A stretch of DNA of 64,000 nucleotides from Endomicrobiales bacterium (GTDB taxonomy: Bacteria > Elusimicrobiota > Endomicrobiia > Endomicrobiales > CAWCFT01), in contig CAWCFT010000018.1 of assembly GCA_963794945.1 (NCBI GenBank), forward strand, positions 3,479 through 67,478, given 5' to 3'. The notes under the pieces were generated by a model. That model was not told where the DNA came from, searched no databases, and saw only the letters and a list, made by a program, of their open reading frames with translations. Positions 1,253-34,200 of the stretch are shown here, one piece after another. Within the stretch, counting starts at the first letter, position 1; each line of letters opens with the position of its first letter. The position numbers and the translations under genes were made by a program.

Positions 1253-1703
1253 GCGGAACGCTCCTTTTGCGGGGCCGTCCTTTCATCTGCAGGTACAGCA
1301 TAGCGTCAGCTATCTGTCGGGCCATCTTAAGCGCTTCATCAGCAAGAGCTTTGTCAGCGGAATAGTTCTTATTGAGGTATTGGTAGGCATCCATGAAGAA
1401 GCCCATAAGCCAGGCATTCTCACCGGTTATTGCGTGCCATTGGCGCCAGTTTCTTGGCTCTCCCGTAAGGGGGTCAATTACGTTCCAGGGCCCAAGGAAC
1501 TTGAAGAAGTAGCCGTTTGAGTTATCTATTGCGGTATTCGCGGCCGCCGAGCCATAATCGAACGGATGCTCCGCGCTGCCCGGGATGTAATACGCGCGAG
1601 GCTGGCTCTGCATCTGCTGAACATAATAAACCACAGCGTCGTGGACGCGTTTATCTTTGTTATCTGAGCGCATAAGCGCTATAAGCGCAGCCAGCGGCGT
1701 CAT
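1242..1703 (-). CDS. Giant gene A segment (six-hairpin glycosidase-like region, first part)
   Basis: 153-aa ORF (..PLAALIALMRSDNKDKRVHDAVVYY..WHAITGENAWLMGFFMDAYQYL..). It overlaps the end of 1660..9153 by 44 nt, where ..GSLTYD joins ..PLAALIAL.. after a 1-nt shift. Confidence 0.75.
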   Translation of the reverse strand: MTPLAALIALMRSDNKDKRVHDAVVYYVQQMQSQPRAYYIPGSAEHPFDYGSAAANTAIDNSNGYFFKFLGPWNVIDPLTGEPRNWRQWHAITGENAWLMGFFMDAYQYLNKNYSADKALADEALKMARQIADAMLYLQMKGRPRKRSVPHGA

Positions 1704-9153: not shown

Positions 9154-9450
9154 AAGGCCATCAGTATCGAACGTAGGTATATTTTTCCCCCAGAACTAGA
9201 AGCGGCATCTCTTCCGCAAACAGGCGCTCAAACAATTGCAGAATTAACTCGTCTAAAGACTGTGTTGCCCCAATCGGAACGGAAAAGCCCAATATCTTGG
9301 GCCTTATTTCTGCGATCCGGTCAGCTAACTGTGCGTATTCTCCCGCGTTCATTGTTTGAGTATCAAAAAGATGCGGTGCAACTGAAGGGAAAGCGTGTTT
9401 AAGATATCCAACAAGAGAATATAGGCCTGATGGGGAATGGATAATATCCG
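8160..9450 (-). other. B12-binding-like domain plus radical-SAM core in A (split by the 9153/9161 frame break)
   Basis: ..PKILGFSVPIGATQSLDELI..MPLLVLG | (shifted frame) GKNIPTFDTDGLLAKYPKAICVVGEGE.. This is followed by the Cys cluster ACPWGRCTFCS (8875-8901; CX4CX2C rather than the canonical CX3CX2C) and ..VFLGVESGS..GFIMFDP. Confidence 0.6.
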
Positions 9451-11875
9451 TATATCTGGATGAAGTTAAATTGACGAATACAAAATTTATAACCTGTTCT
9501 ATATTCGAAATAGCCTTGAGCGAGTTCGACATCTTTGTTGACAGGAAATTATCGTTGGCACTCGCTTCTGGTTTATCAGTCTGGGGAGAAAGCCCTGTCA
9601 GCTCAAGAAGGATAATGGCCAATACTTTTTTTACAATATTTGATTCATTTTTAAGCGTGTTTATAGCATTTAAGCGTGCAAGTATCATGTTTTGAGCGGA
9701 ATCAGGCAGGCTGGCTATGTCTTCAAGGGGTATCCCTTCAATATCATTTCGAAGTTCGGGATTGTTCTTAATGATCTCATCTATCCCATGTATTAAACCA
9801 TAACCTGTTACATAATTCTCTCTTTCTGCAAACATGAACAGGTTTTTTAAAATAGAATATGTGTTAGGGCACAATGTGCCAAAATCGGCAGTATCTAAAG
9901 CGCCGGTTAGCAAGCTGTTTAGAACATTAAGAGCTACATTAACGGAAACAGCCGCTTGCGCTTTCATCTCACCTGTAAATGTTATCTCTTTTACTGTGCC
10001 TCCGGTTTCTTCTCTGGTTATATTTATAGTTCTATTATTAGCAAGTTCTATCGTTCCATTTGCAAAAGACGCTGATTTTACATTATTTTCTCCCAGAGCG
10101 TCTTTGATGGCTTTAACCAGCGCATCGAACTTATCCTGTGTTAGCGCCGACCCTGACAACTGATGCCTTGCTGCTTCCGACATTAACCTGACAAGCGCGT
10201 CCGTTTTCAATTCCGAAGCTATAGCCAGCGCTAGGCTGTTGGTTCTGAATTGCGCATTCTCTTCTAAAATTTTTGCCTGTTCCTTGGCGGATTCCGCGTA
10301 TAACAGGCTTGAACTTTTCGTACTCTGGCTGATATTAGGAGTTATCGTTATATATGACAACCCTTTGTCTTCCGCTATTTTCTTTAATCCTTGAGTGTGG
10401 AACCCTCCGGTTACTATAACCACTATTTCGGAATTTTTAAGCAGCCCTGAAATTGTAGTATTCTTAGCTGACGGTTCTGGTACACTTTTCCCCGAAACCT
10501 GAAACTCGGAACTCGGAACTGTTTTTAATTCTGTTATATTTTTAACAAAACATTCATTCCTTTTACAATTTGTGTCATAAAATTCATTAAGCAAAGTAAA
10601 ATCTTCACTGAGCTCTGAGACCCTGTCCCTGAAAGCGTATTTTGACCAGATGTCCTTGAATTTCCCGAAACGCTCAACAAAATACCCGTAATCATCCGCT
10701 GATATCTTATTGGATACATAATCTTTGAAATACCCGAAGAAATCGTTTAAGAACGATACTTCCAGCTCGCCTATATCGTTTGCAAATCCCACCCGTATCT
10801 CTTCGACAAGGCGCCTCTGTTCTTCAATCAGTTTTATCGGGTTGACGCCTCTGCTTTTTTCGTTATAATCGAAGAACTGCTTAAGGTCAGGATAACTGCT
10901 CCCAATATCAAGCCTGTACTCGCCGGCTATCTTTGAAAGGCAAACGTAAAGCTCGTCAAGTTTTGAAAAGTTATCGGTCTTTTCGGCCATATCGTTGTAA
11001 ACACCGTAGGGCACATCTCTCTTTACGGCTTGAACGAAATTCGACAGTTCTCCGGATATTTTTGGGTACTTTAAAGACCTGCCAAGCTCCATAAGCTCCA
11101 GGTAACCGCTTATGTTTGGATAATTGTTCATGTCGATGCTTAGCAGGTTGTTGTATTCCCCGGGGCTGGAATTTATATTACGCGCGTATTTGCACAACAG
11201 CCTGTAGAATTTTTCGGCTGGCATCTTGCCGCTCTTATATTCCTCTATCGAGCGGTTAAACCTCTTGTTCCGTGAGTTAAAATATTTGGCCTCCATTACC
11301 TGCAGGTCTTTTTCCAGGCCCTTGATCTTGTTGTTAAAGAATTCCTGTTTGTCCAGTATTTTACCGAGCCTGACAATGTTGGCTTCATGTACGTTCCGGT
11401 CTTCTATGCCTTTCAGCAAGCCCGGCCTGTTTGATTTGACAGAATAATATTCCGAGCCGGTCAGCTTGCCTTCATTAATAAGGTTCTCAATTATTGTTTC
11501 CTTTAATTCTTTATCTTTTATATTGCAAAGCCATGACGTGTCTACGTCCCCATAAGCGCCTTCCACATACACTTTCTTTAATCCGTATTTCGCATCAAGT
11601 TCGCTTAGTATCTTTGCTATGTTCCTCTGCACCTCGGCATGGCAGTGGAGGTCCTGAATGTTAACTATAACCCGATTGGACCGAGTGCCCGCAGGCGCGG
11701 CGGAGAAATCAGTAACCCTGCCAATGCTCTGCCCGATAACCTGTTCTTCCGCCAAAGGCTTAACTTTACCGGATTCCCCGGACATGTCGACAGCGGCGTG
11801 GACAGCCTGCCCAAATACGAACGACACTAGAAAACATGCCGTTGTAATGACCGCGATTAGTTTTTTGTAGTTCAT
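9161..11875 (-). CDS. Giant gene A, N-terminal segment. Holds the signal peptide, the N-terminal region shared with giant gene B, and the first half of a B12-binding domain.
   Basis: ORF track gives 9161..11989. I place the start at the ATG at 11875 (MNYKKLIAVITTACFLVSFVFGQAVHA). GGAGG lies 6 nt upstream and the alignment with the start of paralog B begins here. The segment ends 7 nt before the next ORF, at a GGGGGAAAAA run. Confidence 0.85.
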   Translation of the reverse strand: MNYKKLIAVITTACFLVSFVFGQAVHAAVDMSGESGKVKPLAEEQVIGQSIGRVTDFSAAPAGTRSNRVIVNIQDLHCHAEVQRNIAKILSELDAKYGLKKVYVEGAYGDVDTSWLCNIKDKELKETIIENLINEGKLTGSEYYSVKSNRPGLLKGIEDRNVHEANIVRLGKILDKQEFFNNKIKGLEKDLQVMEAKYFNSRNKRFNRSIEEYKSGKMPAEKFYRLLCKYARNINSSPGEYNNLLSIDMNNYPNISGYLELMELGRSLKYPKISGELSNFVQAVKRDVPYGVYNDMAEKTDNFSKLDELYVCLSKIAGEYRLDIGSSYPDLKQFFDYNEKSRGVNPIKLIEEQRRLVEEIRVGFANDIGELEVSFLNDFFGYFKDYVSNKISADDYGYFVERFGKFKDIWSKYAFRDRVSELSEDFTLLNEFYDTNCKRNECFVKNITELKTVPSSEFQVSGKSVPEPSAKNTTISGLLKNSEIVVIVTGGFHTQGLKKIAEDKGLSYITITPNISQSTKSSSLLYAESAKEQAKILEENAQFRTNSLALAIASELKTDALVRLMSEAARHQLSGSALTQDKFDALVKAIKDALGENNVKSASFANGTIELANNRTINITREETGGTVKEITFTGEMKAQAAVSVNVALNVLNSLLTGALDTADFGTLCPNTYSILKNLFMFAERENYVTGYGLIHGIDEIIKNNPELRNDIEGIPLEDIASLPDSAQNMILARLNAINTLKNESNIVKKVLAIILLELTGLSPQTDKPEASANDNFLSTKMSNSLKAISNIEQVINFVFVNLTSSRYTDIIHSPSGLYSLVGYLKHAFPSVAPHLFDTQTMNAGEYAQLADRIAEIRPKILGFSVPIGATQSLDELILQLFERLFAEEMPLLVLGEKYTYVRY
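10385..11675 (-). other. Conserved N-terminal domain shared by A and B (unassigned)
   Basis: VIVNIQDLHCHAEVQRNI..KKVYVEGAYGDVDTSW..LTGSEYY..(helical region)..IVVIVTGGFHTQGL. It aligns by eye along its length with B 21022..22300. It loosely resembles ChaN/TraB/Tiki-type GxxH...E...GxxH folds, which is speculative. Confidence 0.4.
11795..11875 (-). other. Sec-type signal peptide (or signal anchor) of A
   Basis: MNYKKLIAVITTACFLVSFVFGQAVHA|AVD: a basic n-region, a hydrophobic core and a VHA-A cleavage-like site. Confidence 0.6.
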
Positions 11876-11994
11876 TACAACCTCCACAGATATTAAGTCT
11901 TGTATTTTGATATATCCGCCTTTTCGGCGGGTTATTTCCCGCGATGCGATCACGGGAAATAAAAAAACCCGATCGCGCTTTATGCGCAACCGGG
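11876..11994 (-). promoter_or_regulatory. Structured leader upstream of giant gene A: a terminator-like hairpin with a U-run, then two further hairpins. Homologous to the leader of B.
   Basis: Read on the minus strand. H1 is cccggttgcgc/gcgcgatcggg (11968-11994) followed by T7 (11961-11967). H2 is atttcccg/cgggaaat (11934-11960). H3 is cccgcc-gaaaa-ggcgg (11916-11931). GGAGG and the ATG follow. Confidence 0.55.
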
Positions 11995-12480
11995 CGTGCA
12001 GATCCTGATAATAGCTATCTCTGCAGGAAGATTGCCCCTGGACAGCAACACGAAATACATAAGTAAGAATATACTTATAAACCCGCCATAGTGCTCATTC
12101 TGTTTCTCACCCGGCGGGCTGCCGTTTGAAACTTGAGCCCTGAAATTCTCTAACAATTTGCCATTATCCTTACTTAGGTTTTTGCTTATGTATTTGGCCA
12201 TACTCTTAGAAACAGCGTAAACACATGAGGTATTGTTACTATCAGTCCCCTGGGTGTCTTTATTGTGCCTATATTCGGGCTTCAGCGGCTCTCCGTTCTT
12301 TACCATATCCGCTACTGCCCGGCACGGCAAACCTATATTCCCAATGAAGTTAAATACCGGTGACTGTATATCGCCGCAATTAGGCAAAAAGCCGCCAGGT
12401 TCGGCCAAAACAGCGCCTAAACCCGCGAGACCGTTCACCAGCAGGCACAATACAATTAATAAAACAATTCGTTTTTTCAT
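11980..12480 (-). CDS. Small exported Cys-containing protein with a C-terminal hydrophobic helix, upstream of giant gene A
   Basis: ORF track gives 11980..12495. The likely start is MKKRIVLLIVLCLLVNGLAGLGAVLA at 12480. The protein has a signal peptide, scattered Cys residues, and the tail ..SPPGEKQNEHYGGFISIFLLMYFVLLSRGNLPAE... It has the same architecture and position as 20272..20763. Confidence 0.6.
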   Translation of the reverse strand: MKKRIVLLIVLCLLVNGLAGLGAVLAEPGGFLPNCGDIQSPVFNFIGNIGLPCRAVADMVKNGEPLKPEYRHNKDTQGTDSNNTSCVYAVSKSMAKYISKNLSKDNGKLLENFRAQVSNGSPPGEKQNEHYGGFISIFLLMYFVLLSRGNLPAEIAIIRICTPGCA

Positions 12481-12581
12481 TCTTAGTTCCGGCATAAGTA
12501 TACTGTTTGGTGATATTACCCTAAATTGATGAAAAAAATGAAAATATCTTGTGATATTATTGTAAAAAACGTTTGCGAAAT

Positions 12582-12610
12582 ATTATAGGGCTATTCCGCT
12601 GGAAATACAA
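12582..12610 (-). promoter_or_regulatory. Sigma70-like promoter for the small ORF / giant gene A unit
   Basis: The minus strand reads TTGTAT - 17 nt - TATAAT (-35 at 12605-12610, -10 at 12582-12587), about 100 nt upstream of the 12480 start. Confidence 0.4.
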
Positions 12611-20171: not shown

Positions 20172-20194
20172 TGTGATTTTTCAGAAATTTCACA
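20172..20194. promoter_or_regulatory. 23-bp imperfect palindrome (operator-like) just upstream of the -35 box
   Basis: tgtgatttttcagaaatttcaca: the TGTGA and TCACA ends are separated by 13 nt, with an AT-rich self-complementary interior. Confidence 0.35.
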
Positions 20195-20202
20195 GTTTTT
20201 CC

Positions 20203-20231
20203 TTGACTAGTACCTGTATAAAACTTATAAT
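20203..20231 (+). promoter_or_regulatory. Near-consensus sigma70 promoter for the small ORF / giant gene B unit
   Basis: TTGACT (20203-20208) - 17 nt - TATAAT (20226-20231), about 40-60 nt upstream of the candidate starts of the next ORF. Confidence 0.6.
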
Positions 20232-20271: not shown

Positions 20272-20763
20272 TTGCCTGAAAGGAACTATTTTTTGACCTT
20301 GAAATTCCTCAATTTATTCGTTTGCCTTATAACAATTCTGCAGATCACCGCCGCGGGGGTCAGTATATCTCCCGCGCGAGCCGGTTCGTGTGCTCTTTTG
20401 GGCACATACACGGCCGATTGCGAGCGCGTCAACGATTTTGTCGTTTCAACCTCTCCTCTTGGCGAACAATTCAAATGCGCGGCACCTGTAAAACCAAACG
20501 CTGATATTTTCTTTGCCATGCCTGAAATACGTAAGGCAAATGAACAGGCCCTGAAACAGTTCAGGCTTCCTTGCGTTGAGGCAAATTCATTCACCTGCAG
20601 TGAGGGTTTCGTGCTGCTGGACAAAAAATGGTCAGGCCCGCCGGGCCGGTCTTCTCCTCCTATTGCATATTTCATTTTGTTCGCTATAATACTCGCGCTG
20701 AGCAATTTGCCTGCGCCTGTTTCTTGCTTTGCTCGTTCGGTAAACCGCCCGGCTAGACGTTGA
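20272..20763 (+). CDS. Small exported Cys-containing protein with a C-terminal hydrophobic helix, upstream of giant gene B
   Basis: The start is uncertain: TTG at 20272, or TTG at 20293 preceded by AAAGGA. The protein has a hydrophobic N-terminus (LKFLNLFVCLITILQITAAG), 7 Cys, and the tail ..GPPGRSSPPIAYFILFAIILALSNLPAP..RR. It has the same architecture and position as 11980..12480. Confidence 0.55.
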   Translation: MPERNYFLTLKFLNLFVCLITILQITAAGVSISPARAGSCALLGTYTADCERVNDFVVSTSPLGEQFKCAAPVKPNADIFFAMPEIRKANEQALKQFRLPCVEANSFTCSEGFVLLDKKWSGPPGRSSPPIAYFILFAIILALSNLPAPVSCFARSVNRPARR

Positions 20764-20831
20764 AGCCGGGTTTTTTATTTGCTGAGGCAAATAACCCGCC
20801 GATGAGGCGGGTATACTGGTACAAGGGCTTT
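20748..20831 (+). promoter_or_regulatory. Structured leader upstream of giant gene B (homologous to the A leader)
   Basis: H1 is cccggct/agccggg (20748-20770) followed by T6 (20771-20776). H2 is atttgc-tgag-gcaaat (20777-20792). H3 is cccgcc-gatga-ggcggg (20795-20811). The strings cgggtttttt(t)attt, aaataacccgccga..aggcgg.tata and tacaag are shared with A. Confidence 0.55.
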
Positions 20832-20912
20832 ATGAACTTCAACAAATTCATTTCCATTATCACAACGGCCTGCTTCCTGGTGTCGTTTATAGCGTCGCCT
20901 GCTGTGCAGGCG
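20832..20912 (+). other. Sec-type signal peptide (or signal anchor) of B
   Basis: MNFNKFISIITTACFLVSFIASPAVQA|MQA; the core ITTACFLVSF is identical in A. Confidence 0.6.
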
Positions 20913-22238
20913 ATGCAGGCGCCAGTTCCCGGACAGCTGGATTTCAATAAAGCAGCGGAAGGGCTTAACCTACCCGGAACCGTTGGCAGAGTAACCGGCG
21001 GCAAGATTTTTGGAGACGGCCTTCTGGTAATAAATATTCAGGACTTGCACTGCCATGCGGAAGTGCAGAAAAATATAAGCCGCATACTCGAAATGATAGA
21101 AGCGCAGTACGGGCTAAAGAATGTCCTGGTGGAAGGCGCGGCAGGAGATGTGGACACTTCCTGGCTTACCAGCCTTAAAGATAACGCTCTGAAAAAAAAG
21201 ATAGCCGAAACACTGCTTAACCAAGGCAGGCTTACCGGCGCCGAGTATTATTCCGTTCTAAACAATAAGCCCCGCCTGCTAAAGGGGCTTGAAGATGAAA
21301 AGCTCCATACAGAGAACATCGCGCGCCTGGGCAAGATCCTTGAGCGCAGGCCGGTGTACGATCAAAAGATCAAAAAACTCACTGAAGACCTTAACTTTTT
21401 AGAAGCTAAATATTTCAGCTCACGAAACAGGAAGTTCAACAAAGCTCTCGAAAGCTATAAAGAGGGCGGAATGACTCCTGAAAAGTATTACACGCTTCTT
21501 GTCAAATACGCTGAAAAAATAAACAACGGTTCCAACCCTTTCAACCCAGTATTGGCTATAAGGGTAAAGGACTATCCAAATATAGCCGGCTATCTAAATA
21601 TGATTGAAGCTGGCAAGCGTATAAGATACAACCGGGTAGGATACCAACTGCAGGGTTTTGTACAACAACTGAAAGCCAAACTACCCTACAATGAATATAC
21701 TAAACTGATAGAAAAAACAAACAATTTTGCGAAGCTTGACCAGGCCTACCTATCGCTGGCCCAGATATCAGAACAGTACCACATGCATCTTGAAGGCGAA
21801 TATCCAGACCTTGCCGCTTTCTTTGAGTACCTTGAAAAGGGGCGGAAGGTCAACCCGATGGCTTTGATAGATGAGGAGAGGCGGCTTACTGAAGCCGTGC
21901 GCATAGGCCTTGCGCGAAATGTTGCGGAATTAGAAGTGTCATTTGCCGCTGATTTCTTCGTGTGTTTTAAAGATTACCTGCTCAACAGGCTTTCCGCGGA
22001 TGATTACGAGTATTTCACCCAGCGGTTCGATAAGTTCAAAACTATCTGGGGCAAGTACGTTTACGCGAACCGCCTTAATGATATGTCTGCCGATTTCGCC
22101 CTTCTTGATGAGTTCTACCGCGTTAACAACGAACGCAGCCGCAGCTTTTACAGAGCATGGCAAATTGCATTAAGTGCCCTTCAGCAGGGGAAGAAAACCC
22201 CAGCTGCACGGATGTTACAGCTTCCCTCCCCCGGCTGA
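20832..22238 (+). CDS. Giant gene B, segment 1 (signal peptide plus the N-terminal domain shared with A)
   Basis: ORF track gives 20760..22238. I place the start at the ATG at 20832 (MNFNKFISIITTACFLVSFIASPAVQA), where the alignment with the A start begins. The segment is alignable to A along its whole length. Confidence 0.85.
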   Translation: MNFNKFISIITTACFLVSFIASPAVQAMQAPVPGQLDFNKAAEGLNLPGTVGRVTGGKIFGDGLLVINIQDLHCHAEVQKNISRILEMIEAQYGLKNVLVEGAAGDVDTSWLTSLKDNALKKKIAETLLNQGRLTGAEYYSVLNNKPRLLKGLEDEKLHTENIARLGKILERRPVYDQKIKKLTEDLNFLEAKYFSSRNRKFNKALESYKEGGMTPEKYYTLLVKYAEKINNGSNPFNPVLAIRVKDYPNIAGYLNMIEAGKRIRYNRVGYQLQGFVQQLKAKLPYNEYTKLIEKTNNFAKLDQAYLSLAQISEQYHMHLEGEYPDLAAFFEYLEKGRKVNPMALIDEERRLTEAVRIGLARNVAELEVSFAADFFVCFKDYLLNRLSADDYEYFTQRFDKFKTIWGKYVYANRLNDMSADFALLDEFYRVNNERSRSFYRAWQIALSALQQGKKTPAARMLQLPSPG

Positions 22239-22300
22239 ACCCTAAGGAAATAATCGTTACAATTACAGGCGGTTTTCACACCAGGGAGCTCCAGCGCCTG
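21022..22300 (+). other. Conserved N-terminal domain shared with A (unassigned)
   Basis: LVINIQDLHCHAEVQKNI..KNVLVEGAAGDVDTSW..LTGAEYY..IIVTITGGFHTRELQ, collinear with A 10385..11675. Confidence 0.4.
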
Positions 22301-25300
22301 CTCCAGGAAAAAAAGGTTTCCTGCCTTACCGTAACCCCGAATGTCAGCAAAGGAACGGAAGAATCTAACGCTATTTATATGCATTTGGCCAGCCAGCAGG
22401 CGGCTGTTTTGAATAATCCTCAACTTAGGCCCAGTAGCGCGGCGGCAAAAACCATCAATTCAAATGCCTTACAGCTAGCCATAGAAAGCGTTCAGTCCGG
22501 TAACGCCAAGCTGGAAGCAGTCGCTAACGCGCTTTGGTCTTACGCGTTAACCACTGCTGATTTAAACGCTGTCAAAGATGAAATAGAACTGTATTTACAA
22601 TCAAATTCTATTAGCGGAAGTGCCAGCATTGACGCCAAGGCAGAAGCCATTGTTGTAACTTGGAAAGACGTTTCCGGCCAGAGCCGCACCATAACCATAA
22701 GTAAAAACGCGGAGTTCGGCAGCCTGACTCTATCCAGCCGGGCTCACAGCCTGTTAAATGACATACTCCCCAGCCTAAAAGCAGGCGAACAAGCAGAAAA
22801 AACCGCAGTTGGCTCTTTCGTTCTGCCGGTTGAATCAATGGTGGCTATGGGAAGCCTGATAGTTGAGGTACTGGCATCCTTAGAGCTGTCGCTTGCGGCT
22901 GACAGCCTTGTTACCGGGGACGGCCTGATATACGAAATATCTCATAATGAAGAACTGCAGAAACTGCTTGAAAAACAGATCAATATTGATATGCAGAAAT
23001 TAGGCCAGCTGCCCGACTGGCTTCAAAGGGCCCTTGCTGTAAGGGGCAAAGCCAGACAAGGCATTGCCGCAGAGCTTTCCAAAGAAGACCAAAGTGCGCT
23101 TATGAAAGCGCTTCTTTCAATACAGCCGGTATATGACCTTCTTGTTTCGTTAAATGCGACAAGGGTGATCGACAGCCGGCAAGCCAAGCCTGATACCGGT
23201 TTAAAAAATGGAAATGTTAAGAAAAGCAATTTCTATAATTACATTAGAGGCGGGTTTGTCGAAGAAAAAGATCTTCCAATTACAGACTTGCAAAAAGATA
23301 CTATAAACATGCTCGCGAAACAAGCGGGTATAACTATAAATGGTTTAGAGAATATCAGCTGGAAAGAAGCGCACAGAGTTGAAACTCTTCTAAAGATACT
23401 GCCCCAGAACCATTTAAACCGCGTAAAGAAAGTTAACTATATCGTGAAAATTTTAAACCCACTTGTGTCGGGCTGGACCGATTTTGCAAGTAAGACCATT
23501 AATATAGTTGCAAAGAAAAGATTTAATCATGATTATGGCGAAGTGTTCGTGCACGAGCTTGGGCATAAAGTTGACACCTCTCCTTATGCCATAAAAATAA
23601 TTCAAAGTCTAATGGATTTTTTGCTTACCTGCGCTTTATACTGGGTTGTTATGCGTGTAATTTTCACTGGCGATCAAATGAGTTTTCATAATGCGGCGTT
23701 TGACATTGTTTCGGTCTTTGTTATAACTGCAATTTCCTATATAAAATCAAAGATAAAGGCGTCGATCGGCAGAAAAATGGTAAATACAAATTCTCGTATT
23801 AGCGAATACGCGGCTACTAACGATAGGGAAAACTTTGCTGAAAATTACGCGTATTATGTTATTTTTGGCGGTGAATTCAGGCGCCTAGCTGGAACTTCGG
23901 CCAAGCTTGCGAAACAATATCAAAAAATGAAAAAAATATTTAATGGTATTGAATATACAAGGAATGAAAATGATGATATTGTTATTCTAGAAAAAAATAG
24001 TGAAAATACAGTATTGCCAGCTGAAGACAAAGGCATGGGGCTGCAAGAACTAACGAAAGCATCTGATTTGGCAGTCTCGGCACAGCCTGACGCAAGCCAG
24101 GCACCCGCCGCCAAAGGAAGGCCCCGCAGTGCGCCTGCCGGCTCACAACGGTATTTACACAGGCTTATAGATGTTCTTAAACTGCTTCAGGATGAAAAGC
24201 TGACTAAAGATCGTTTTTTAGAGGCATACTATAATTTTGAGAATCTCTGCTCCAGCGCCCGTAAAGATTACAGTGAAAATATGTTCCTTTACAGGCGCGC
24301 AGAAGTCTTTAAGACCTTCCGTGTATTCACAAATCCGGAAACACTATGGGATAATACCGTCGCGGCTTCAATTCGCGCCAGCGCTGAAAACAGCATTCAA
24401 AGCCTGCAAAAAGAACTTTCGGCAATGGAAGCTGACACCGGCACTGCCATGCCGAGAGAAAGTATCTTCGATGGGCTGGAAGAAACACCCAATATCAGGC
24501 CGGTTTTAGCCGCCAACAAACCCGTTATAGCAATAATGGATGTGCACGGAACACTGATACAGTCAAGCTGGAAAGTGGCATATGAACAGGTATATTTCAA
24601 ATTAACGGGAAAGCGCCCTCCCGCTCAATGGATATTAGAAAAAGTTTGGAACAAGCCTGACAATGAGGTCGCGGCTATGCTGTCAACTCAAACGGGCAGG
24701 CCCGCTTCAGAAATACTGGATTTAATTAATAAAAACAAAAGCCTCGTAAAATCCAAAAGTGTCCCGCCTGCCCTTCCGGGAACCCTGGAATTGGTAAAAG
24801 CATTAAAGGAGCAGGGGGTTACAGTAAAAATTGTGAGCAACACCCCTGGTAAAATTGTTATCAATCAGCTGGAAAAAGCCGGATTCTTAAATTATATAAG
24901 CAGGGATGACATTTTTTATAACGACCAGCCCGCTTCAAAATATTTCCATAGGGCGAAAATAATCCAGAATATAATTACGCAAAACCCAGGTTTCAATATC
25001 GTTTACTTCGATGACAGCTTCAGAGAAATTTCAGAAATTTCAAAGCAATTTGGGAAACGGATGACAATTTTTGGCGTTCCTGATGGAAAAGGTATAGAAT
25101 CAGAGAACAACCGCGTGGAATTAATTAAGTCGGGCGCTCATTACATTGTGCTCCGTAAACAGGGGTTCCCGGTTGAAGATATACTTCGTTGGTTAGATAA
25201 AGCTCCGAAAACCATTAGCCCGGCAGACAATAACATAATTGAAAGCCAGCCTGGCCAGGAAATTGAACAGCATACAACTGCAACCCAAATTTTGACACAA

Positions 25301-26515
25301 AAACAATCCATACTGAGCAGTACCGGGCAAGCGCTTAAAGCCATAGCCCGCGAAGTTGTGCTCTGGTACGGAAAATTCTATCAGTTGTCTATGCCGAAAC
25401 AGTTCCAGGGCTTGCTGCCCAAGCCCTATAAGCCGCTGTACATCATGCAGGAAACAACCGGCAAACAATACGAACCACAGAAAGATTTGCTTAAACAATT
25501 TATCGAAAATAATGCGGAAAATCTCGCATTGCCGCTGCGAAAACTGAAATATTTCAGGACGGAATTCAGCATTTCTGGTGATGGGGTAGTCAGCGATGTT
25601 CCGGAAAGAATATCTTCCTCAACAAGACGGCCTAACACAAAAATATTAATCCGCTGGCAGGAATTCAGCGGTGGAAAAAACTTCTGGATGCCGGCGCCTG
25701 ACGACCGCGAAATGGCCGCTATGGCCACCGCGAATAATGGCGAAAGCTATACCGGCGTGCTATGGCAGGGAAGCTCACAAGATGAGCTGTATCTTGTCCT
25801 AGTTCCGGTCTCTGAATATTTTAAAGCGGGTTATAGCCTGTCTACCGCGACATTAAGATTGATCTATGAAACTATACTCAGCTTGGAACGCCGCAGAAAG
25901 GACGGTAATCAAATTGAGATCTCAAATAAGGAAAAAGAAGGGTTCGCCCACGCACTAGACTCATTGGACAGGCTTGGAACGCGCTGCTACACAGTCAATT
26001 TCAACGAAGAAAAGAAAGCAATTATCAAACAAATTGACAATGAAACCCTTTCGCATGTAATCTACGAAACAATTATCAAACCTACTAATGATAAAGAGAT
26101 GGAAAGATTATCCGAATTGAGTTCTGACCCTGCTATTCTACAACTGCGCGGCCCCGGCAGTGATGAGGGAGACGTGCTGGGAACTATTTTAGAACCCCTG
26201 CTAAACAGCAAACTGACAGCCGGCCAATTTAAACGTACATTCGATAATATTCACAGGGCAATGTTCCGTAATTTCATAATAATGGAGCGAAAAGAAAATT
26301 ATACTATAGCTATTATTATGATTAAAGAAATCTGCAATTCGTTAGATATGCCAGTTGAATTGCGCAAAAAACTGTCTAACCTGATGATGGGGATATTCTT
26401 CGATCAGAACGGTAAAAGCCGTGATGTTATAGTGCAGACCGCTGCTATGAAATATGCAGCAAAGAAGCTACAGCAGAGACAATCCATATCGTGGCGCATA
26501 AAACAGAACGCTTAA
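22157..26515 (+). CDS. Giant gene B, segment 2 (rest of the shared N-terminal region, HExxH peptidase-like domain, HAD-like domain, repeat X1)
   Basis: 1452-codon ORF overlapping segment 1 by 82 nt. ..KEIIVTITGGFHTRELQ.. matches A ..SEIVVIVTGGFHTQGLK.., which is uninterrupted in A. Confidence 0.9.
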   Translation: MANCIKCPSAGEENPSCTDVTASLPRLNPKEIIVTITGGFHTRELQRLLQEKKVSCLTVTPNVSKGTEESNAIYMHLASQQAAVLNNPQLRPSSAAAKTINSNALQLAIESVQSGNAKLEAVANALWSYALTTADLNAVKDEIELYLQSNSISGSASIDAKAEAIVVTWKDVSGQSRTITISKNAEFGSLTLSSRAHSLLNDILPSLKAGEQAEKTAVGSFVLPVESMVAMGSLIVEVLASLELSLAADSLVTGDGLIYEISHNEELQKLLEKQINIDMQKLGQLPDWLQRALAVRGKARQGIAAELSKEDQSALMKALLSIQPVYDLLVSLNATRVIDSRQAKPDTGLKNGNVKKSNFYNYIRGGFVEEKDLPITDLQKDTINMLAKQAGITINGLENISWKEAHRVETLLKILPQNHLNRVKKVNYIVKILNPLVSGWTDFASKTINIVAKKRFNHDYGEVFVHELGHKVDTSPYAIKIIQSLMDFLLTCALYWVVMRVIFTGDQMSFHNAAFDIVSVFVITAISYIKSKIKASIGRKMVNTNSRISEYAATNDRENFAENYAYYVIFGGEFRRLAGTSAKLAKQYQKMKKIFNGIEYTRNENDDIVILEKNSENTVLPAEDKGMGLQELTKASDLAVSAQPDASQAPAAKGRPRSAPAGSQRYLHRLIDVLKLLQDEKLTKDRFLEAYYNFENLCSSARKDYSENMFLYRRAEVFKTFRVFTNPETLWDNTVAASIRASAENSIQSLQKELSAMEADTGTAMPRESIFDGLEETPNIRPVLAANKPVIAIMDVHGTLIQSSWKVAYEQVYFKLTGKRPPAQWILEKVWNKPDNEVAAMLSTQTGRPASEILDLINKNKSLVKSKSVPPALPGTLELVKALKEQGVTVKIVSNTPGKIVINQLEKAGFLNYISRDDIFYNDQPASKYFHRAKIIQNIITQNPGFNIVYFDDSFREISEISKQFGKRMTIFGVPDGKGIESENNRVELIKSGAHYIVLRKQGFPVEDILRWLDKAPKTISPADNNIIESQPGQEIEQHTTATQILTQKQSILSSTGQALKAIAREVVLWYGKFYQLSMPKQFQGLLPKPYKPLYIMQETTGKQYEPQKDLLKQFIENNAENLALPLRKLKYFRTEFSISGDGVVSDVPERISSSTRRPNTKILIRWQEFSGGKNFWMPAPDDREMAAMATANNGESYTGVLWQGSSQDELYLVLVPVSEYFKAGYSLSTATLRLIYETILSLERRRKDGNQIEISNKEKEGFAHALDSLDRLGTRCYTVNFNEEKKAIIKQIDNETLSHVIYETIIKPTNDKEMERLSELSSDPAILQLRGPGSDEGDVLGTILEPLLNSKLTAGQFKRTFDNIHRAMFRNFIIMERKENYTIAIIMIKEICNSLDMPVELRKKLSNLMMGIFFDQNGKSRDVIVQTAAMKYAAKKLQQRQSISWRIKQNA
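23280..23960 (+). other. HExxH zinc-metallopeptidase-like domain with two hydrophobic segments inserted
   Basis: GEVFVHELGHKVD (HELGH at 23552-23566), then the hydrophobic segments IIQSLMDFLLTCALYWVVMRVIF and AAFDIVSVFVITAISYI (about 23596-23745), then SEYAATNDRENFAENYAYYV. The HExxH...E-x-F-A-E order resembles MtfA/M90-type zincins. Confidence 0.5.
24518..25159 (+). other. HAD-superfamily hydrolase-like domain with a variant motif I
   Basis: Motif I is VIAIMDVHGTL (DVHGT at 24539-24553; the canonical form is DxDGT). Motif II is KIVSNTPG. Motif IV is IVYFDDSF. Confidence 0.55.
25487..26510 (+). repeat. Protein-level repeat X, copy 1 (shorter than X2/X3)
   Basis: LLKQFIENNAENLALPLRKLKYFRTEFSISGDGVVSDVPE..YTGVLWQGSSQDELYLVLVPVSE..LGTRCYTVNF..LRGPGSDEGDVLG.. 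aligns with X2 and X3. Confidence 0.8.
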
Positions 26516-26534: not shown

Positions 26535-28259
26535 GTGCTTGGCTATGAGAAATTTTACGAATCCCTGCCGGGATCTTTCCGGGATATGCTGCCCAAGCCG
26601 TACAAGCCGCTTCATATAGTCCCGGAAGAACGCGAAATATTCCCAGTTTCATATAATACGCAGGCGGTAGGTTATGTACCGGTAATCCCTCCAAACGCGT
26701 ACAACGCTCTTTCTGATTCTGTCTTTAAAAGAACAATTGACGGCCTGATGCGGGAGATCAATGACCCGTTCAGTGAACTTGGAAGAGAAAGGCAAAGTAT
26801 AATCACTAAAAGCGGCTTATCTCTGGAAGAATACAAAAGATTCATGCTGTGGCAGGGAAGGCAAAAGGGTATCCGCGGAACCAAGACTTTTTCGTATGTT
26901 GGCGGGTTTAATTCATTCAGGCCGTTCGCTGAATCCGAAGCTATTACCGATGTATATTCAATGGGGCTTGAATATTTTGGAAATGCAACAGATTTAATTG
27001 GAGCTTGCAAATCAAATTATACCGGAAAGGCCTATGTATTGTCAGGAATGCAGTATGAAACATATGATCCAGTAAATCAATACCGTTATCATAAGGCGCC
27101 GGGAATCATGGCGATCGCTAAGATCATTTCGTGGCTGGGTGGGAGTATAGAGGGCCTGTATTATTTTGACATAAATGAGAAAGGAGAGTTCGGTTTCCTT
27201 AACAAAGACGAAGCCATATCCGGCGACAAGCACAACGCGGTAATTGAATTTACCGTTGGCGGCACAACAAAACGTTTCTGGTACACACAGCAAGACATTT
27301 ATACAATGACAGATAATTTTAAGCGCTATATGGGCAGAGTCGAGTTCGATAATTTTCTGATAACCGGACTAAACGGCCTTTTTATTTACATACTTCTAAA
27401 GTCTATGGGTGAACATTCAAAAGCGACTATAGAGGAACAGATGGCTCCCGCGGTCAGGAATAACGCGCTTGTAACAACAAACGCTTCCCGACCCTATGGC
27501 CGCGAACCTAATCCAATATGGCAAAAGGGGTATCCGGTACAGGTAATACCTCTTGAGCCCGGGCAGAAGTACGGTTACAGTGATGGAAATGCAGAACATG
27601 AAAATGCAGAACGTGGAGGAAATATATTTTTCGGCAATGCCGAAGGCCTGGTCGGCTCATCCTGGCGGCCGGCTGGTAACGATGGCAACATTTTCAGCGC
27701 CTTAAGCATAGCGGCAGAAGAGGCGCTCAACCTGACCGGCACCGCACTGGAACAGCAACTGCAAAACATATCCGTTGAACTGGGAATGCTTGCAACCGAA
27801 CATTTTACCCCAAACGCATATATAGGAGCGCTCAAACAAACATTTATTGAAAAAGGCCGGGCATTCGGTATAAACTCCGGTAATATTATTGTCAAGCCCA
27901 TCACGAAGTTTGAGCAGTTCAGGGACGCTGACGGCGGCATCCGGCTTTCAGTTTCGCGCCTTGCGCTGGAAAATGGAAAATACGTGCTTTATATACATCA
28001 GGGTTTTTTAAATGCCTTGTTTTCAATGAGTGATGAACAACAAAAGACAATATGGGAGCAGTACAAATGCGGCCCTCCGGAAGCCTTCGCGGTAGAAGAA
28101 CTTCAGGAATTAGCTGAGATACAGAAATTGGTCCAGCAAGGCACGCCCTTCGATAAAGCCTACGAGCAGTACCACGCATTTAACCCGCATAATGATATTT
28201 TCACTATTCTTAGCCGCGCGTCTCGCGAAAAAAGAAACGCTAATATTAAAAAACCATAA
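26535..28259 (+). CDS. Giant gene B, segment 3 (repeats Z1 and Y1)
   Basis: 574-codon ORF. Its frame is already open upstream of the called GTG start (LKTVAREIVLGYEKFYESLP). That stretch matches LKAIAREVVLWYGKFYQLSMP, which precedes X1 inside segment 2. Confidence 0.9.
   Translation: MLGYEKFYESLPGSFRDMLPKPYKPLHIVPEEREIFPVSYNTQAVGYVPVIPPNAYNALSDSVFKRTIDGLMREINDPFSELGRERQSIITKSGLSLEEYKRFMLWQGRQKGIRGTKTFSYVGGFNSFRPFAESEAITDVYSMGLEYFGNATDLIGACKSNYTGKAYVLSGMQYETYDPVNQYRYHKAPGIMAIAKIISWLGGSIEGLYYFDINEKGEFGFLNKDEAISGDKHNAVIEFTVGGTTKRFWYTQQDIYTMTDNFKRYMGRVEFDNFLITGLNGLFIYILLKSMGEHSKATIEEQMAPAVRNNALVTTNASRPYGREPNPIWQKGYPVQVIPLEPGQKYGYSDGNAEHENAERGGNIFFGNAEGLVGSSWRPAGNDGNIFSALSIAAEEALNLTGTALEQQLQNISVELGMLATEHFTPNAYIGALKQTFIEKGRAFGINSGNIIVKPITKFEQFRDADGGIRLSVSRLALENGKYVLYIHQGFLNALFSMSDEQQKTIWEQYKCGPPEAFAVEELQELAEIQKLVQQGTPFDKAYEQYHAFNPHNDIFTILSRASREKRNANIKKP
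26680..27689 (+). repeat. Protein-level repeat Z, copy 1
   Basis: VIPPNAYNALSDSVFKRTIDGLMREINDPFS..FMLWQGRQKGIRG..FNSFRPFAESEAITDVYS..APGIMAIAKIISWLGGSIEGLYYFD..HNAVIEFTVGGTTKRFWYTQ..FDNFLITGLNG.. Confidence 0.85.
27690..28205 (+). repeat. Protein-level repeat Y, copy 1
   Basis: IFSALSIAAEEALNLTGTALEQQLQ..IVKPITKFEQFRDADGGIRLSVSR..KYVLYIHQGFLNALFSMSDEQQ..CGPPEAFAVEELQELAEIQKLVQQG..AYEQYHAFNPH. It shares an identical 27-nt run (gcagaagaggcgctcaacctgaccggc) with Y2. Confidence 0.9.
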
Positions 28260-31200
28260 CACCGGAAACAATATGGGGCTAATAACTGGCGGACAAAATG
28301 ATGACATTTTAAGCCGTTGCATAGAAAATAACGGAGAAAACCTCTCGTTTCCTTTTTTAAAGAAATTGCTTTATTACATGACAGGTTTTTCTATCGCGGG
28401 AACGGGCGCCGTCAGCGATGTCCCCGAAACAATTAACAACATTCCTTCACAGATAAAAAAAGAGGATGCAAGAATAGCCCTGTTTTGTCAAACACTGGAC
28501 GGTAAAAACACATACGGCATGCCGACGCTTCAGAATATGGCAACTGCCGGTGAAATCCTTAACAGCAAAGAGCAGTGTTACGCTGGAGTTGTTTGGCAGG
28601 GAGAAGAACGGAATGAATTATATATCGTTGCGGTTCCTGTTTCTGAAACAAATATCTACAACTTACAGCTGGGGATTCTTGGCCAGTACTTGATAACTAT
28701 TGCAAAATTTGAGAGAACGCAGAAAAATATGAGCTCAACTGAAATTTCAGCCGTCAAACAGAATATATTCGCGGCTGCTTCAAGCGTATTGTCACAAATG
28801 GGCACCCGCGCTTACTCTCTTACAATTGACCCGCAAAACGGCACGGCTATAAAACCTTTTCCGCTGGAAAGCCTCGTTAGTGTTATTTACGAGTCAAGCG
28901 TAAGGCAGTCTCTCATGGGAATGTTCAAAAAGATGCAAGAAAGCACTTCCGAACAAGCGCTTTCAAAACTCCAGGGCCCTACCGCGGATGAAGGCGATGT
29001 GCTGAGCGTGATGCTGATTAATTTTACCAGAAACAAAGATCGTTTATTGGAACAATCGTGCTATCGTACATACAAGGAAATCGTGGATGACATGTTCAAG
29101 CAATATCAGTATTTTGAAATTCATGCGTATTACGCTTACATTGCGCAAATTGTAGCCAAGCACTGTGAAAAATCTGATCTGCCCGCGAATTTAAAAAAGC
29201 AATTTAAAGATATTATCCTGTCAACGTTCTTTGATAAGAACGGCAAAGCATTGAAGCCTTATCTCGCGGTAGCTCCAGAGTATTATGTTCTTAACAAATT
29301 GGCCGAGGCGGATATACTGGTTTTAAGAGAACGTGTTAAAACGCTTAAAGGGCCCACTCTCAGGTCAGGCCAAATATTAAATGTTCTTGAGATACTTGAC
29401 GAGATGGATAGCAAGGACCTGCAAAAAGTCATTATAGTATTAGAAGACGCAATGATATGGATAGATTTTCTGAGCATTGCAGGAGACAGTTTTAATGTCA
29501 ACATGGATGTGATGCTCCCAAACTGGTGCCTGCAGTATTTTATAAAAAACGGCACGGACATAAACAGTAACAACCTGCAGACTTATGAATATGCCATATA
29601 TGCAACAGCAAGACTTATTGCTGCCGTGCGGTATGATGAAAATAACCACAAACGCAGCCCTGAAGGCCTGGAAACAATACTCAGCTATATAAAGCTAAAA
29701 GCCAGATACCAATTAATAGCACAGCAACAAAAGCAAAACAGCGGCAATTCAGATAATTTATTCAGCGCCTTAAGCGTAGTAGCAGAAGAGGCGCTCAACC
29801 TGACCGGCGGCGCGCTGGAACAGGAACTTCAGAAAATATCTGTCAAAATAGGCAGGCTTTTTTCCTGGCATTTTGCCGTAAATTCACACGCGGAAGCCCT
29901 CAAACAGATGTTTATTGACAAAGGCCGGGCATACGGTATAAATGCTGATAATATTATTATCAAGCCCATCACAAAATTTGAACAATTCACTGACGCTAAA
30001 GGCAAAACCAGGCTTTCTGTTTCACGCTTTGTGCCGGAGGACGGCAAGTATGTGCTTTACATACACCAGCGCTTTCTGGATGCCCTGTTTTCAATGACTG
30101 AAGAACAGAAGAATGATATTTATGAGCAATACCACTGCGGCCCTCCGGAAACCTTCGCGATAGAAGAGGTTCAGGAATTCGCGGAAATACAGAAATTAGT
30201 CCAACTGGGCGTGTCCTTCGATAAAGCCTACGAGCAGTACCACACAGCTAACCCCCACCACAATGTTTTTACCGAAACCGCTTTGCAAACAGCGGCAAAG
30301 CAGATAGACGTATTGAAGCGGTGCATAGAAAATAATAAAAATAACCTGGCTCTTCCATTAAGAAAACTGCGGTATTATTCAACCGGTTTTTCTATTTCTG
30401 ATTCAGGCGAAGTCAGCGATGTACCCGAAACAGTTAACGGCATACCCTGGCAGATTGATATACCTGACGCAAGGGTAGCCCTGTTTTGGCAAAAACTGGA
30501 CGGCAAAGATAAATTCGGCATGCCGACACCCGCTGATATTTTAACTGCCGCTGGAAGCCTTGCGGGCAAAGAGCCGCGTTATGCGGGAGTTGTTTGGCAA
30601 AAGGAAGCTCAGGGTAATTTATATATCGTTGTAGTTCCTGTTTCCGCAAACAATAACTACGAAAGCGCGCTGAGAACGCTTAGCAAATACCTGTCAGATA
30701 TCGCAGCTTTTGAAGGACAAGAGAAAGTAATTAATTCAGCCGATCCCTTCCCTGAAGAGCAAGATGCATATATGCTTGCCAGTATGCTACTGTCGCAAAT
30801 GGGCGCCCGGGCCTACTCTGTTACGATTGACCCGGAAAACGGCGCGGCTATAACCCCCATGTCACAAGAAAGCCTGGTGCGCGCTTTTTACAAACCAAGC
30901 GAGGAACAGACTGACTCAGAACAACCCGATAAGAGGCAAACAAATATTTCGGAAAAAACTCTCTTTAACCTTCGGGGCCCGCACACTGACGAAGGCGATT
31001 TACTGGGTGTCCTGCTGCTTAGTTTTACTAAGAATACAGGCCTATTGCTGGAGGAACCGTGCTTTGTAATTTACAAAGATATCTTGACGGACACGATAAA
31101 ACAAAAAATATATATTGACATCCACGAAGACTATTCGTCCGTCGAAAAAATTGTAGACAGGCGCTGTGATGAATCCGTCCTGCCGGCAAATTTAAAAAGG

Positions 31201-34200
31201 CTGTTGAAAGAGATTATTCTGTCAACATTGTTTGATAAGAACGCCAAGGCATTAGAGCCTAAAGTTCGCGCAAACGCGTGGGTTTATGTTCAAAACAAAT
31301 TGGCCGAAGCCGACTTGCGTATTTTAAGGGAACGCATAAAAATACTTAAAGGGCCGTCGGTCAAATCAGGTAAAATGCTAAATGTTCTTAATGCGCTTGA
31401 TGCTATGGACAACTTTGACATTCAAAAAACCAACGTAATCTTATCTCAAGCTAAGGATTTATTAGACATATTGCAGAATAAATATGGAAATACTTTTAAT
31501 AATAGCGTAGAAGATACGTTGAAATTATGGTGCATACAAAACAGCAAGATAAGCTCTGCGGCAGGCATCGATAATAACTTTGAAGCGCATTTTGATGCGG
31601 CAATTATATTTGCAAAACTGATTATAGCGGTGTGGTATGACGAAAACAACACCAAACGCAGCCCTGAAGATATGCAAACAATACTCAGCTACTTACAGAT
31701 TAAGGGCAGGCTGCAATTAATATCACAGCAGCATAGCAAGGAACAAGTCAAAGAAAACGAGCAGGGACAGGACACATCCAATCATCTGGGTATCGGCCTT
31801 GAAGCAATTATCTGGGCCGCTCAAGGTATATTAACTATAATGCCCGGTGTAGAGCAGTCGGCGCTGACAGCTGTTGAACTCGCAAAGTCTATTATCAGAG
31901 GAGCAGTGATCGTTTCGAACAGCGGCGGCTTCGCCCGCGAATCAACCTATACGCTTGATCAGATTGTCCCTGAGCTGGCGCGCGACATAGAGTATTACAA
32001 CACACTCTGCCCAGTCAACGGTTTAAGGCTTTCAAAAGTGAAAGTTCTTGAATCGAAGTCTGACTATATAGCCACCAATGACAGCCTTGGTTTCGCCAGC
32101 ATGGAAACTCTGGCTTTTGACGAAGAGACAATGACAGTAAAAACAGCCGACAATAAGGGTAATCTCAAGACACTTACGGACCGCCTGCGCCACGAGTTTA
32201 ACGAGAATATGGCCATGAATATTGAAGGTTCGGTTCAATTCGCGGCTTTGAACTATTTCCTGGTCAAATCCCATGTAGCCAAACCCCACATGCCGAGGGG
32301 CAACTTGAGCGGGGAAGAGCTGATAAACTGCTGGCACGCGTGTGAAAGCGACATTGCCGGGAACCAGGACGAGTACAGGGAACTGTTTAAAAACGATAAA
32401 GACCTGGAAGCAATTGAGAGGCTAATCGCTTTCGCGAACGAAGACTCTACAAAGCTGTTAAAAGTTTATAAGTCACTTTCCGAAATTATCGCTGGGCTGG
32501 CAAAATCAGTCCTCGCAAAACCAGTCGTTGTTGACAAAGTTGAAAAGCAGCCGCAAGTCTTCTCCAAATATATTCCAACAATCCCCCCAGGCGCGTTTAA
32601 CGCTCTTACCAGCCCGGAATTCAAAAAGACAATCGACAGCCTGACGCAGGAGGTCAATGACCCGTATAGTAAAGTTGGGATAAAAAGGCAAAGCATCATA
32701 AAACAAAGCGGCCAGCCTCTGGAAAAGTATAAAAAATTTATGCTGTGGCAGGGAGAGCAAAAAGGCGTCCGCGGAAAAGGGATGTTTTCGTGCGCCGGCA
32801 GGTTTAATTCGTTCAGGCCGTTCGCTGAGTCCGAAAATATCACCGATGTTTATTCCAACGGCCCTGAATATTTTGGGAATACAAACGATATTATAGAAGA
32901 ATACAGCGCAAAATACGATGATAGATCCTATATACTTTCAGGGATCCAATATGAAACATATGATGAAGGAAAGGCGGCCTGGCCTAAAAAGGCGCCGGGT
33001 ATAATAGCTATCGCCAAAATCATATCTTGGCTGGGCGGCGCTATAGACGGCGTGTATTATTTTGACGTAGATGAAACGGGCAGATTTAGTTTTGTCAATA
33101 AAAATGAAACCATTTCCGGCAGCAGGCACAACGCGGTAATTGAATTTACAGTAAACGGCGTGAAAAAGCGATTCTGGTATACGCAGCTGGATGCCAAAGC
33201 GTTGACAGATAATAATAAACGCTATATAGACAGAATCGGGTTCGACAATTTCCTGGTAACCGGCCTCAACGGGTCTATAATGTATGCTGACGATAATGGA
33301 GTGCGGGATTATGACGACCTGTTAAAAATCCGGTCAAAAAACACTGGTGAACAAGAGAGATCAAAGACAATAATAGAGCTGCAAATGGCTGCAGCGGTCA
33401 GAAACGGAGCGCTTGTAACAATAGATGTTTATAAGTTCGAAGGCGAAACGGCTTATCGTCTATGCTACAGAGGCTATCCGGTAAAAACGATATTGCTTAA
33501 ACCCGGTCAAAATTACGGCTATAACACCGGAAAGGCTGGAGGGAAAATATATTTCCTCCGCAATGCCGAAGGCTTGATAGGCTCACAATGGCGGCGCAAC
33601 GACATCAACCTCAATGACAAGCCTAATATATTAAGACAAACACTGATGTTTTTATTGATACCTTTTTTCGCTTTTAACTCATACTTCCCGCAGCTAAAAG
33701 CAGCTCCGCATGATACCGCAGTAACGAGCAAGCTGTCTGCGGCATATCTGTACAGGGCAAGCGCCGGAAAGGCTATTGACTGGCTTGCGCGTGGTTCGGA
33801 ATACGCGCGTATGAAAGGATTCCTGCAAAGGTATTTTGATATCGAGAACCCTGCCGCTGATATGCAGGCATTGATCAAACGCGCATCGCGCGGGTTTGAC
33901 AGCGACATGGAAACCCGGGCGGTTGACCTTATCAACAAAATGAGAAAAGCCGTACCTGACGGTTTTGTTTTTTCGAAGCTTGGCGCGGGCGATTTTTCGC
34001 TATTGATGCACATTCTCAGGAACCCTGAACTTGAAATTCTACTATTTGATAGGGAAACGCTTGAAGTGTATTTATCAGAGAATATTATAGGAGGCGTCCC
34101 CGCCGCGCAATTGTCTAATTTGCAGATGCTTCGTATATATCTGATCTCCGAAGCACTAAGCGATTATGCCCCGGTCTCAACACAGGACTCGCTCGCAAGA

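Follow-up and report, generated by a model that had tools for sequence, protein, structure and literature searches.

A terminator-like hairpin built around the stop codon of a small ORF, a candidate attenuator at the entrance of giant genes in Endomicrobiales

How bacteria express genes of at least 10,000 codons is an open practical question. Internal partial terminators are common in operons after a highly expressed first gene, and in fimbrial and pilin operons one of them follows the gene of the major subunit. Together with these terminators, pyrBI-type attenuation and the leaders of processive antitermination (PMC12691694) appear to be the mechanisms closest to the arrangement described here. 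In Escherichia coli, the translating ribosome represses a terminator that lies a few bp past a stop codon or towards the end of a coding region (PMC4824070), and a coupled ribosome prevents the formation of the terminator hairpin (PMC5021804). In both the pyrBI attenuator of E. coli and the position series engineered with tR2 (Li et al., 2016; PMC4824070), a translated ORF runs into a Rho-independent terminator, and read-through to the downstream gene is allowed when a ribosome follows the polymerase closely and blocks the hairpin. The processive antitermination leaders, such as those of LoaP in Bacillus velezensis (PMC12691694), RfaH/ops and EAR, present an intrinsic terminator at the entrance to a very long transcription unit, and riboswitches and T-box-type attenuators place a terminator hairpin ahead of the gene that they regulate. 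With respect to huge proteins, Elusimicrobiota rank with the richest phyla (PMC11573180). Literature searches found nothing on the element studied here.

The window, that is, the whole stretch of 64 kb analysed in this work, comes from an Elusimicrobiota (Endomicrobiales) bacterium and contains two giant genes, A and B, each located downstream of a small ORF. Gene B was recovered as a chain of overlapping ORFs in different frames (20760-22238, 22157-26515, 26535-28259, 28192-41355, 41258-50692, 50665-51060, 51017-52156, 52030-56334 and 56315-56620), and the chain of gene A extends from 11875 down to at most 746 on the minus strand. These chains are probably single genes of ~36 kb (B) and >11 kb (A) interrupted by frameshift errors of long-read assembly. 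Contig L081, which is identical, has its PFK and TyrRS genes split as well, and the relative L345 carries an intact giant ORF of 10,327 aa. L081, which contains the 96%-identical protein match, has the same sequence as the window and so provided no comparative signal.

Both giant genes start with an N-terminal module of 445 aa (20832-22166 on the plus strand and 10541-11875 on the minus strand) comprising a signal anchor (..T..CF..) and an invariant NIQDLHCHAEVQ motif, and this module had no match in Pfam, NCBIfam or PDB sequences. Relatives confirmed by tblastn numbered 230 in species-representative genomes, nearly all of them from Elusimicrobiota (Endomicrobiales / Endomicrobiaceae), and a further 355 in metagenomes, where they were gathered with a 141-aa core alignment of the module. 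It is often present in several copies per Endomicrobiales genome, for example in at least nine contigs of the SPRUCE 9 MAG. The rest of the giant genes encodes Radical SAM, PGM/PMM, HAD, HD and TPR domains. For the comparison, ~160 related loci were assembled; giant-gene starts were located and the upstream DNA was inspected in 154 of them, and the non-redundant giant-gene starts numbered 126.

The original prediction had placed three hairpins (H1, H2 and H3) between the small ORF and the giant gene in both copies, the first of them terminator-like and overlapping the small-ORF stop codon, within a duplication that is otherwise diverged. Reading and folding of the sequence located all three in each leader (Table 1). 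H1 combines a GC-rich stem with a U-tract immediately after it, the two diagnostic features of an intrinsic terminator, and H1-A and H1-B are the sole compact canonical terminators of the window. The small-ORF stop falls in the H1 loop in both copies: the TGA of small ORF B constitutes the last 3 nt of the loop, with the last five codons of the ORF forming the 5' arm and loop, and the TAA of small ORF A lies within the loop ATAAA. Compared with dinucleotide shuffles, the MFE z-scores were -3.6 for leader B and -7.0 for leader A. The two leaders have in common the block AAATAACCCGCCGAnnAGGCGG, which is found nowhere else in the window (0 expected). The divergence of the flanks was borne out as well, as the two small ORFs gave no significant BLASTP similarity to each other and the giant-gene N-termini share 50% protein identity over 445 aa.

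Table 1. Position of the promoters, small ORFs, leader hairpins and giant-gene starts in the 64-kb window.
Feature	Position	Strand	Description
Operon B promoter region	20185..20231	+	AAATTTCACAG box at 20185-20195; TTGACT-17-TATAAT at 20203-20231, 11/12 sigma70-type match
Small ORF B	20293..20763	+	~156-163 aa; signal peptide; C-terminal TM helix then SNLPA; stop TGA at 20761-20763
H1-B hairpin and U-tract	20747..20780	+	GCCCGGCT-AGACGTTGA-AGCCGGGT, 8 bp, -13.9 kcal/mol; hairpin 20747-20771, loop of 9 nt; then U-tract TTTTTTATTT at 20771-20780 (T6-A-T3)
H2-B	20777..20792	+	ATTTGC-TGAG-GCAAAT; distal H1 U-tract serves as its 5' arm
H3-B	20794..20812	+	ACCCGCC-GATGA-GGCGGGT; loop holds an ATG at 20802
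Giant gene B start	20823..20834	+	AAGGG, putative SD; ATG at 20832; gene runs via overlapping ORFs to ~56620
Operon A promoter	12582..12610	-	sigma70-like TTGTAT-17-TATAAT, read from the sequence
Small ORF A	11980..12495	-	171 aa; signal peptide; TM helix then RGNLPA; stop TAA at 11982-11980, in H1 loop
H1-A hairpin and U-tract	11957..11995	-	GCCCGGTTGCGC-ATAAA-GCGCGATCGGGT, 12 bp, -21.6 kcal/mol; hairpin 11995-11967; then TTTTTTTATTT, T-run 11967-11957 (T7-A-T3)
H2-A	11934..11960	-	ATTTCCCGTGAT-CGC-ATCGCGGGAAAT, 12-bp stem
H3-A	11916..11931	-	CCCGCC-GAAAA-GGCGG
Giant gene A start	11873..11885	-	GGAGG, SD; ATG at 11875; ORFs 9161-11989, 1660-9153 and further towards the window edge

Most of the inspected loci showed a single hairpin with a T-run immediately ahead of the RBS. 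A terminator-like hairpin within 130 nt upstream was detected at 86 of the 126 giant-gene starts, whereas among the other ORFs of these loci (150 aa or longer) only 5 of 153 had one; once duplicates were removed, 80 distinct H1 hairpins were available. Their tails follow the consensus TTTTT[TA][AT]TTG and their stems differ widely between loci (e.g., ACCCGG.., GGCATATAGC.., AAAGCTCTGCC.., ACCTCTGTT..). When 30 H1 sequences were aligned, 95.3% of the cells were paired and sliding of the register lowered pairing to 55% or less, although the hairpins had been found by folding, which makes pairing partly true by construction, and the enrichment and slide controls compensate for this only partly. 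Eight of the ten pairs had changed on both sides, and the covariation score was 0.706 as compared with 0.228 for shuffles, none of 500 shuffles reaching 0.706. This covariation points to selection on the structure of H1. Besides, the C-terminal peptides coded by the H1 5' arm are not conserved, which argues that selection acts on the nucleic-acid structure of H1. Across homologs, the unit under selection is H1 alone, and no conserved multi-helix core was recognized.

The distance from the end of the T-run to the giant-gene ATG had a median of 18 nt (IQR 13-30; 80 distinct H1 sites), so typical leaders have room neither for a promoter downstream of H1 nor for H2 and H3. The gaps of the window copies (55 and 85 nt) belong to roughly the top eighth of this distribution. 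About 30% of the giant-gene starts lack H1, and many of those lack the small ORF altogether. Among the closer relatives, L342, L344 and L346 have no small ORF, and L343 and L345 have H1 alone.

An ORF of at least 80 codons ends near 66 of the 80 H1 sites. One homologous cluster contains 49 of these 66 small ORFs, small ORF A and 48 from related loci, so that the small ORF and the giant gene are an ancestral module. Small ORF B is a diverged singleton that shares the architecture of the cluster (signal peptide and C-terminal TM helix). Members of the family have a median of 166 aa, several Cys and a TM helix followed by (R/K)(S/G)(N/S)LP(A/W) or LPRGAID. Searches of the small ORFs against Pfam, NCBIfam and PDB sequences gave no match. 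The family is unannotated, and further examples are found in L004, L006, L011 and L084. Since it is always paired with a giant gene, the small-ORF protein may be a partner or an anchor of the giant protein.

The position of the small-ORF stop relative to H1 was then recorded at the 66 sites. It lies in the H1 loop in 29 loci, in the 5' arm in 9, in the 3' arm in 1, between H1 and the ATG in 5 and ahead of H1 in 7, and in the remaining 15 it overlaps the giant-gene ATG, mostly as ATGA. The stop is consequently within or past H1 at 59 of the 66 sites, and at 20 of them the hairpin and its T-run are wholly inside the small ORF. An ATGA stop/start overlap is the classical arrangement of translational coupling; it was seen across the terminator in L343 (769-772), L024, L096, L019 and L029, among others. 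A small and noisy control set was provided by 32 other terminator-like hairpins of the same loci, 21 of which come after the stop.

The best explanation of H1, and one that we hold to be somewhat probable, is an intra-operon terminator or attenuator with ribosome-gated read-through; the original prediction had listed an attenuator among several options, and on sequence grounds this seems to describe H1 best. The small ORF and the giant gene would form one operon, transcribed from a sigma70-type promoter upstream of the small ORF, and H1 would be an intrinsic (Rho-independent) terminator embedded in the final codons of the small ORF. Because H1 lies directly 5' of the giant-gene RBS, every giant-gene transcript would have to read through it, so that H1 would act as an intra-operon attenuator and the giant gene would be transcribed by read-through. 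Attenuation at H1 would leave the small protein in excess and restrict the entry of RNA polymerase into a gene of ~11 to 36 kb, and H1 probably limits transcription into the giant gene in this way. A ribosome close behind the polymerase would occlude the H1 stem and cause read-through, and a polymerase ahead of translation would terminate at H1. In expressome structures the ribosome P site is ~24 nt or more from the RNA 3' end; with the polymerase at the U-tract, the small ORF would therefore have to extend into the hairpin for a coupled ribosome to be still inside it, and this is the arrangement observed. No gating would result from the stop-in-hairpin arrangement if the polymerase outruns the ribosomes, as it does in Bacillus. 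The building of the small-ORF stop into H1 points to control of giant-gene entry by transcription-translation coupling, and a conserved, covarying and position-fixed terminator at this entrance offers a testable handle on the expression of genes of at least 10,000 codons.

The proposed attenuator differs in several aspects from each of the systems that it resembles. In contrast to pyrBI and tR2, the ORF running into the terminator is not a short leader peptide but a conserved, predicted secreted or membrane protein of ~166 aa; compared with pyrBI, neither a UTP-sensitive pause nor regulatory codons can be recognized, the function is deduced from sequence alone, and the downstream gene is a giant one that is often translationally coupled via the ATGA overlap. 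As in operons with internal partial terminators, a terminator stands between a small first gene and the downstream genes of what would be one transcription unit with differential expression, but the known cases follow the stop codon in an intergenic spacer, whereas here the stop is within the terminator or beyond it, and the next RBS follows directly. With respect to LoaP, RfaH and EAR leaders, neither an ops-like conserved element nor an EAR-like Rfam match was found, and the stems vary freely between loci. No conserved leader sequence was seen besides the U-tract tail, and no NusG paralog was found among the window ORFs scanned with Pfam. Unlike riboswitches and T-box-type attenuators, the leader is coding sequence and shows no aptamer-like core, no alternative antiterminator and no Rfam match. 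H1 belongs to no leader-peptide, riboswitch or Rfam family, the features tested for these being absent.

The main rival of ribosome gating is that H1 is a constitutive, partly leaky terminator which also stabilises the 3' end of the small-ORF mRNA. It would set a fixed ratio of many small to few giant proteins with no role for the ribosome, and the overlap with the stop codon would be due to genome compaction. This is distinctly possible, if not probable. The covariation of H1 and its enrichment ahead of giant genes apply equally to such a terminator, and the loci in which the stop overlaps the ATG suggest simple translational coupling. However, compaction alone does not predict the stop-in-hairpin arrangement, given that the stop precedes the hairpin in most of the other terminators and in few H1 sites, and the placement of hairpin and T-run wholly inside the small ORF would be odd for a terminator of this kind.

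A more specific version of ribosome-gated attenuation is tentative and, in our judgement, rather unlikely: H1 could be a coupling checkpoint of the giant gene, which only polymerases trailed by a ribosome would pass, the ribosome being handed on through the short gap or the ATGA overlap. If so, a message of 10-36 kb would never be started untranslated and would not be exposed to Rho, R-loops or decay. The promoter with its TTTCACA box (see below), the small membrane protein, H1 and the 445-aa module would then represent a previously undescribed expression cassette of Endomicrobia.

The idea of a conserved three-hairpin functional RNA held in part, since a structure-conserved element does lie between small ORF and giant gene, but only H1 is found family-wide. 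Homologs with covariation exist for H1, whereas H2 and H3 are found in 3 or 4 of ~150 leaders: copy A, copy B and the metagenomic relative L099, plus a nested variant in L087. For the family at large the similarity is thus mostly that of a simple shared terminator, yet one that overlaps the small-ORF stop. Additional hairpins would fit only in approximately 17 of the 80 leaders, and most of the ones present there have unrelated sequences. Copies A and B, L099 and, nested in a longer stem, L087 have a CCCGCC-loop-GGCGG hairpin downstream of H1 and ahead of the start (with a looser form in L066); these 4 leaders compare with ~0.1-0.2 expected from the locus-wide rate. L099 shows the full layout, with H1 and its U-tract, H2 (ATTGTCAGCGA / TCGTTGGCAAT), a GAA linker, H3 (CCCGCC-GCATT-GGCGG) and a TTAT tail.

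The difference between the two H2 stems had been interpreted as compensatory. Both are indeed paired, but copies A and B differ in length and not by paired substitutions: A carries a palindrome larger by 12 nt on a common ATTT/AAAT base, and its paired stem extends over 12 bp instead of the 8 bp originally listed (atttcccg/cgggaaat). Genuine double changes appear only once L099 is added, the ATT/AAT base being kept in the three sequences and the inner pairs changed on both sides; H2 and H3 were searched by fuzzy patterns, MAFFT mis-registers the three H2 stems and three sequences are too few for statistics. H3 is conserved in sequence among A, B and L099, with no covariation in the stem and with variable loops (GATGA, GAAAA and GCATT).

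These data make it improbable that H1, H2 and H3 together constitute a structured leader, riboswitch-like or protein-binding, which switches between termination and read-through. Recurrence of the layout in the independent locus L099, with an H2 stem that is different yet paired, conservation there of the box AACCCGCCG....GGCGGnTAT, the nested variant of L087 and the excess of the CCCGCC-loop-GGCGG hairpin over expectation would all agree with such a switch. Nevertheless, H2 and H3 are missing from ~95% of homologous leaders, including those of the close relatives L083, L084, L343 and L345, the H3 loops are not conserved, its stem lacks covariation and only three sequences are concerned. In addition, H2 and H3 cannot influence termination at H1 because they are transcribed after its U-tract. 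The original prediction had recognized no known riboswitch class, and Rfam 15 agreed, with 0 matches at the gathering threshold in the window and, near the leaders, just a chance-level hit to NsiR1 (E = 2.3) over H1-A. Neither was an antiterminator signal obtained, as the energy gained by pairing of the upstream 50 nt with the H1 5' arm was that of shuffles (mean z +0.15, p = 0.18, n = 80). A riboswitch-like, ligand-sensing switch is consequently not supported, H1 alone being conserved and Rfam match, antiterminator and multi-helix core all being absent.

In another rival, H3 and the conserved A-rich tract ahead of it would function as DNA or on the opposite strand, as an intrinsic terminator of antisense transcription that leaves the giant gene, a palindromic operator or an overlapping sigma54-like promoter. 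TTATTT (A and B) or TTCATT (L099) comes after H3 when the antisense strand is read, and two opposed U-tracts would automatically generate the ATTT/AAAT base of H2. The H3 motif also matches generic terminator-like hairpins of many phyla in genome contigs, and sequence conservation with variable loops and no covariation would suit a DNA site. For the sigma54-like option, A, B and L099 share a GG-N10-GC spacing in the form GG[CG]AA[AT][TG]AACCCGCC. This spacing and the antisense T-tract may be taken as weak leads. Against them, no antisense gene or promoter is evident and no sigma70-type promoter was detected in the leader, where neither TATACT nor TATATC has an acceptable -35 at 16-18 nt. The sigma54 -12 element, usually TGC, would here be CGC, and the conserved H3 3' arm would be left unexplained. 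Altogether, a DNA-level or antisense function of H3 is the most improbable of the readings considered.

The three-hairpin leader as such is, as judged from the loci compared, a peculiarity of a subclade, and H2 and H3 are subclade-specific extras (copy A, copy B and L099) outside the conserved mechanism centred on H1. They may act as a 5'-proximal stabiliser or spacer, as an antisense terminator or as a DNA palindrome. Attenuation at H1 does not account for an H3 that is nearly identical in two paralogs of 50% divergence. A dispersed palindromic repeat of the REP or MITE type was considered, and H2/H3 has only two copies in the window, both at the equivalent position. Two pattern scans of genome contigs with the H3 box retrieved generic terminator-like hairpins of unrelated phyla and no Elusimicrobiota, so that H3 is not a sequence motif of the whole phylum. 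Sequestration of the SD by H2 or H3 was discarded, since no complementarity to the AAGGG or GGAGG sites was found on reading the sequence.

L084 contains ATTTCGCTGAGGCAGGCATG, and its GAGG, common to the H2 loop of copy B, is the SD, which suggests an insertion of the H3 segment that separated the SD from the ATG. TGAGGC occurs twice in leader B, at 20783-20788 (H2 loop and 3' arm) and at 20803-20808 (H3 loop and 3' arm). In copy A (GCGGGAAAT / GGCGGATAT) and in L099 (TTGGCAATG / TTGGCGGTT) a similar resemblance to the H3 3' arm is seen in the sequence ahead of the A-rich linker. The TGAGGC repeat could be the trace of a short duplication or insertion that made H3.

The public gene call (P0001, L081) starts giant gene B at the ATG of the H3 loop (20802-20804). 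We favour the ATG at 20832, on the basis of the N-terminus consensus of the family (M-N-x-K-K-x-I..T..CF) and of the H3 loop of copy A, which has no ATG. Annotators should be aware of start calls inside the H3 loop and of the frequent ATGA overlap of small ORF and giant gene across the terminator.

Finally, a recurrent box, A(A/T)TTCAC(A/T)(A/G), was observed just upstream of the sigma70-like promoter of giant-gene operons. Boxes of this TTTCACA type were present in 38 of the 154 loci, with ~43 matches in the -900..0 region as compared with ~4 expected, and they may be considered a candidate regulator-binding or UP-like site. Relative to the signal anchor of the giant gene they are located at -624 in L024, -171 in L105 and -655 in L104. 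The box is weaker in operon A, at about 12560-12540 on the minus strand, and it is often found in tandem with an 11-nt period, e.g., TTCACAAGAATTTCACAAATAA.
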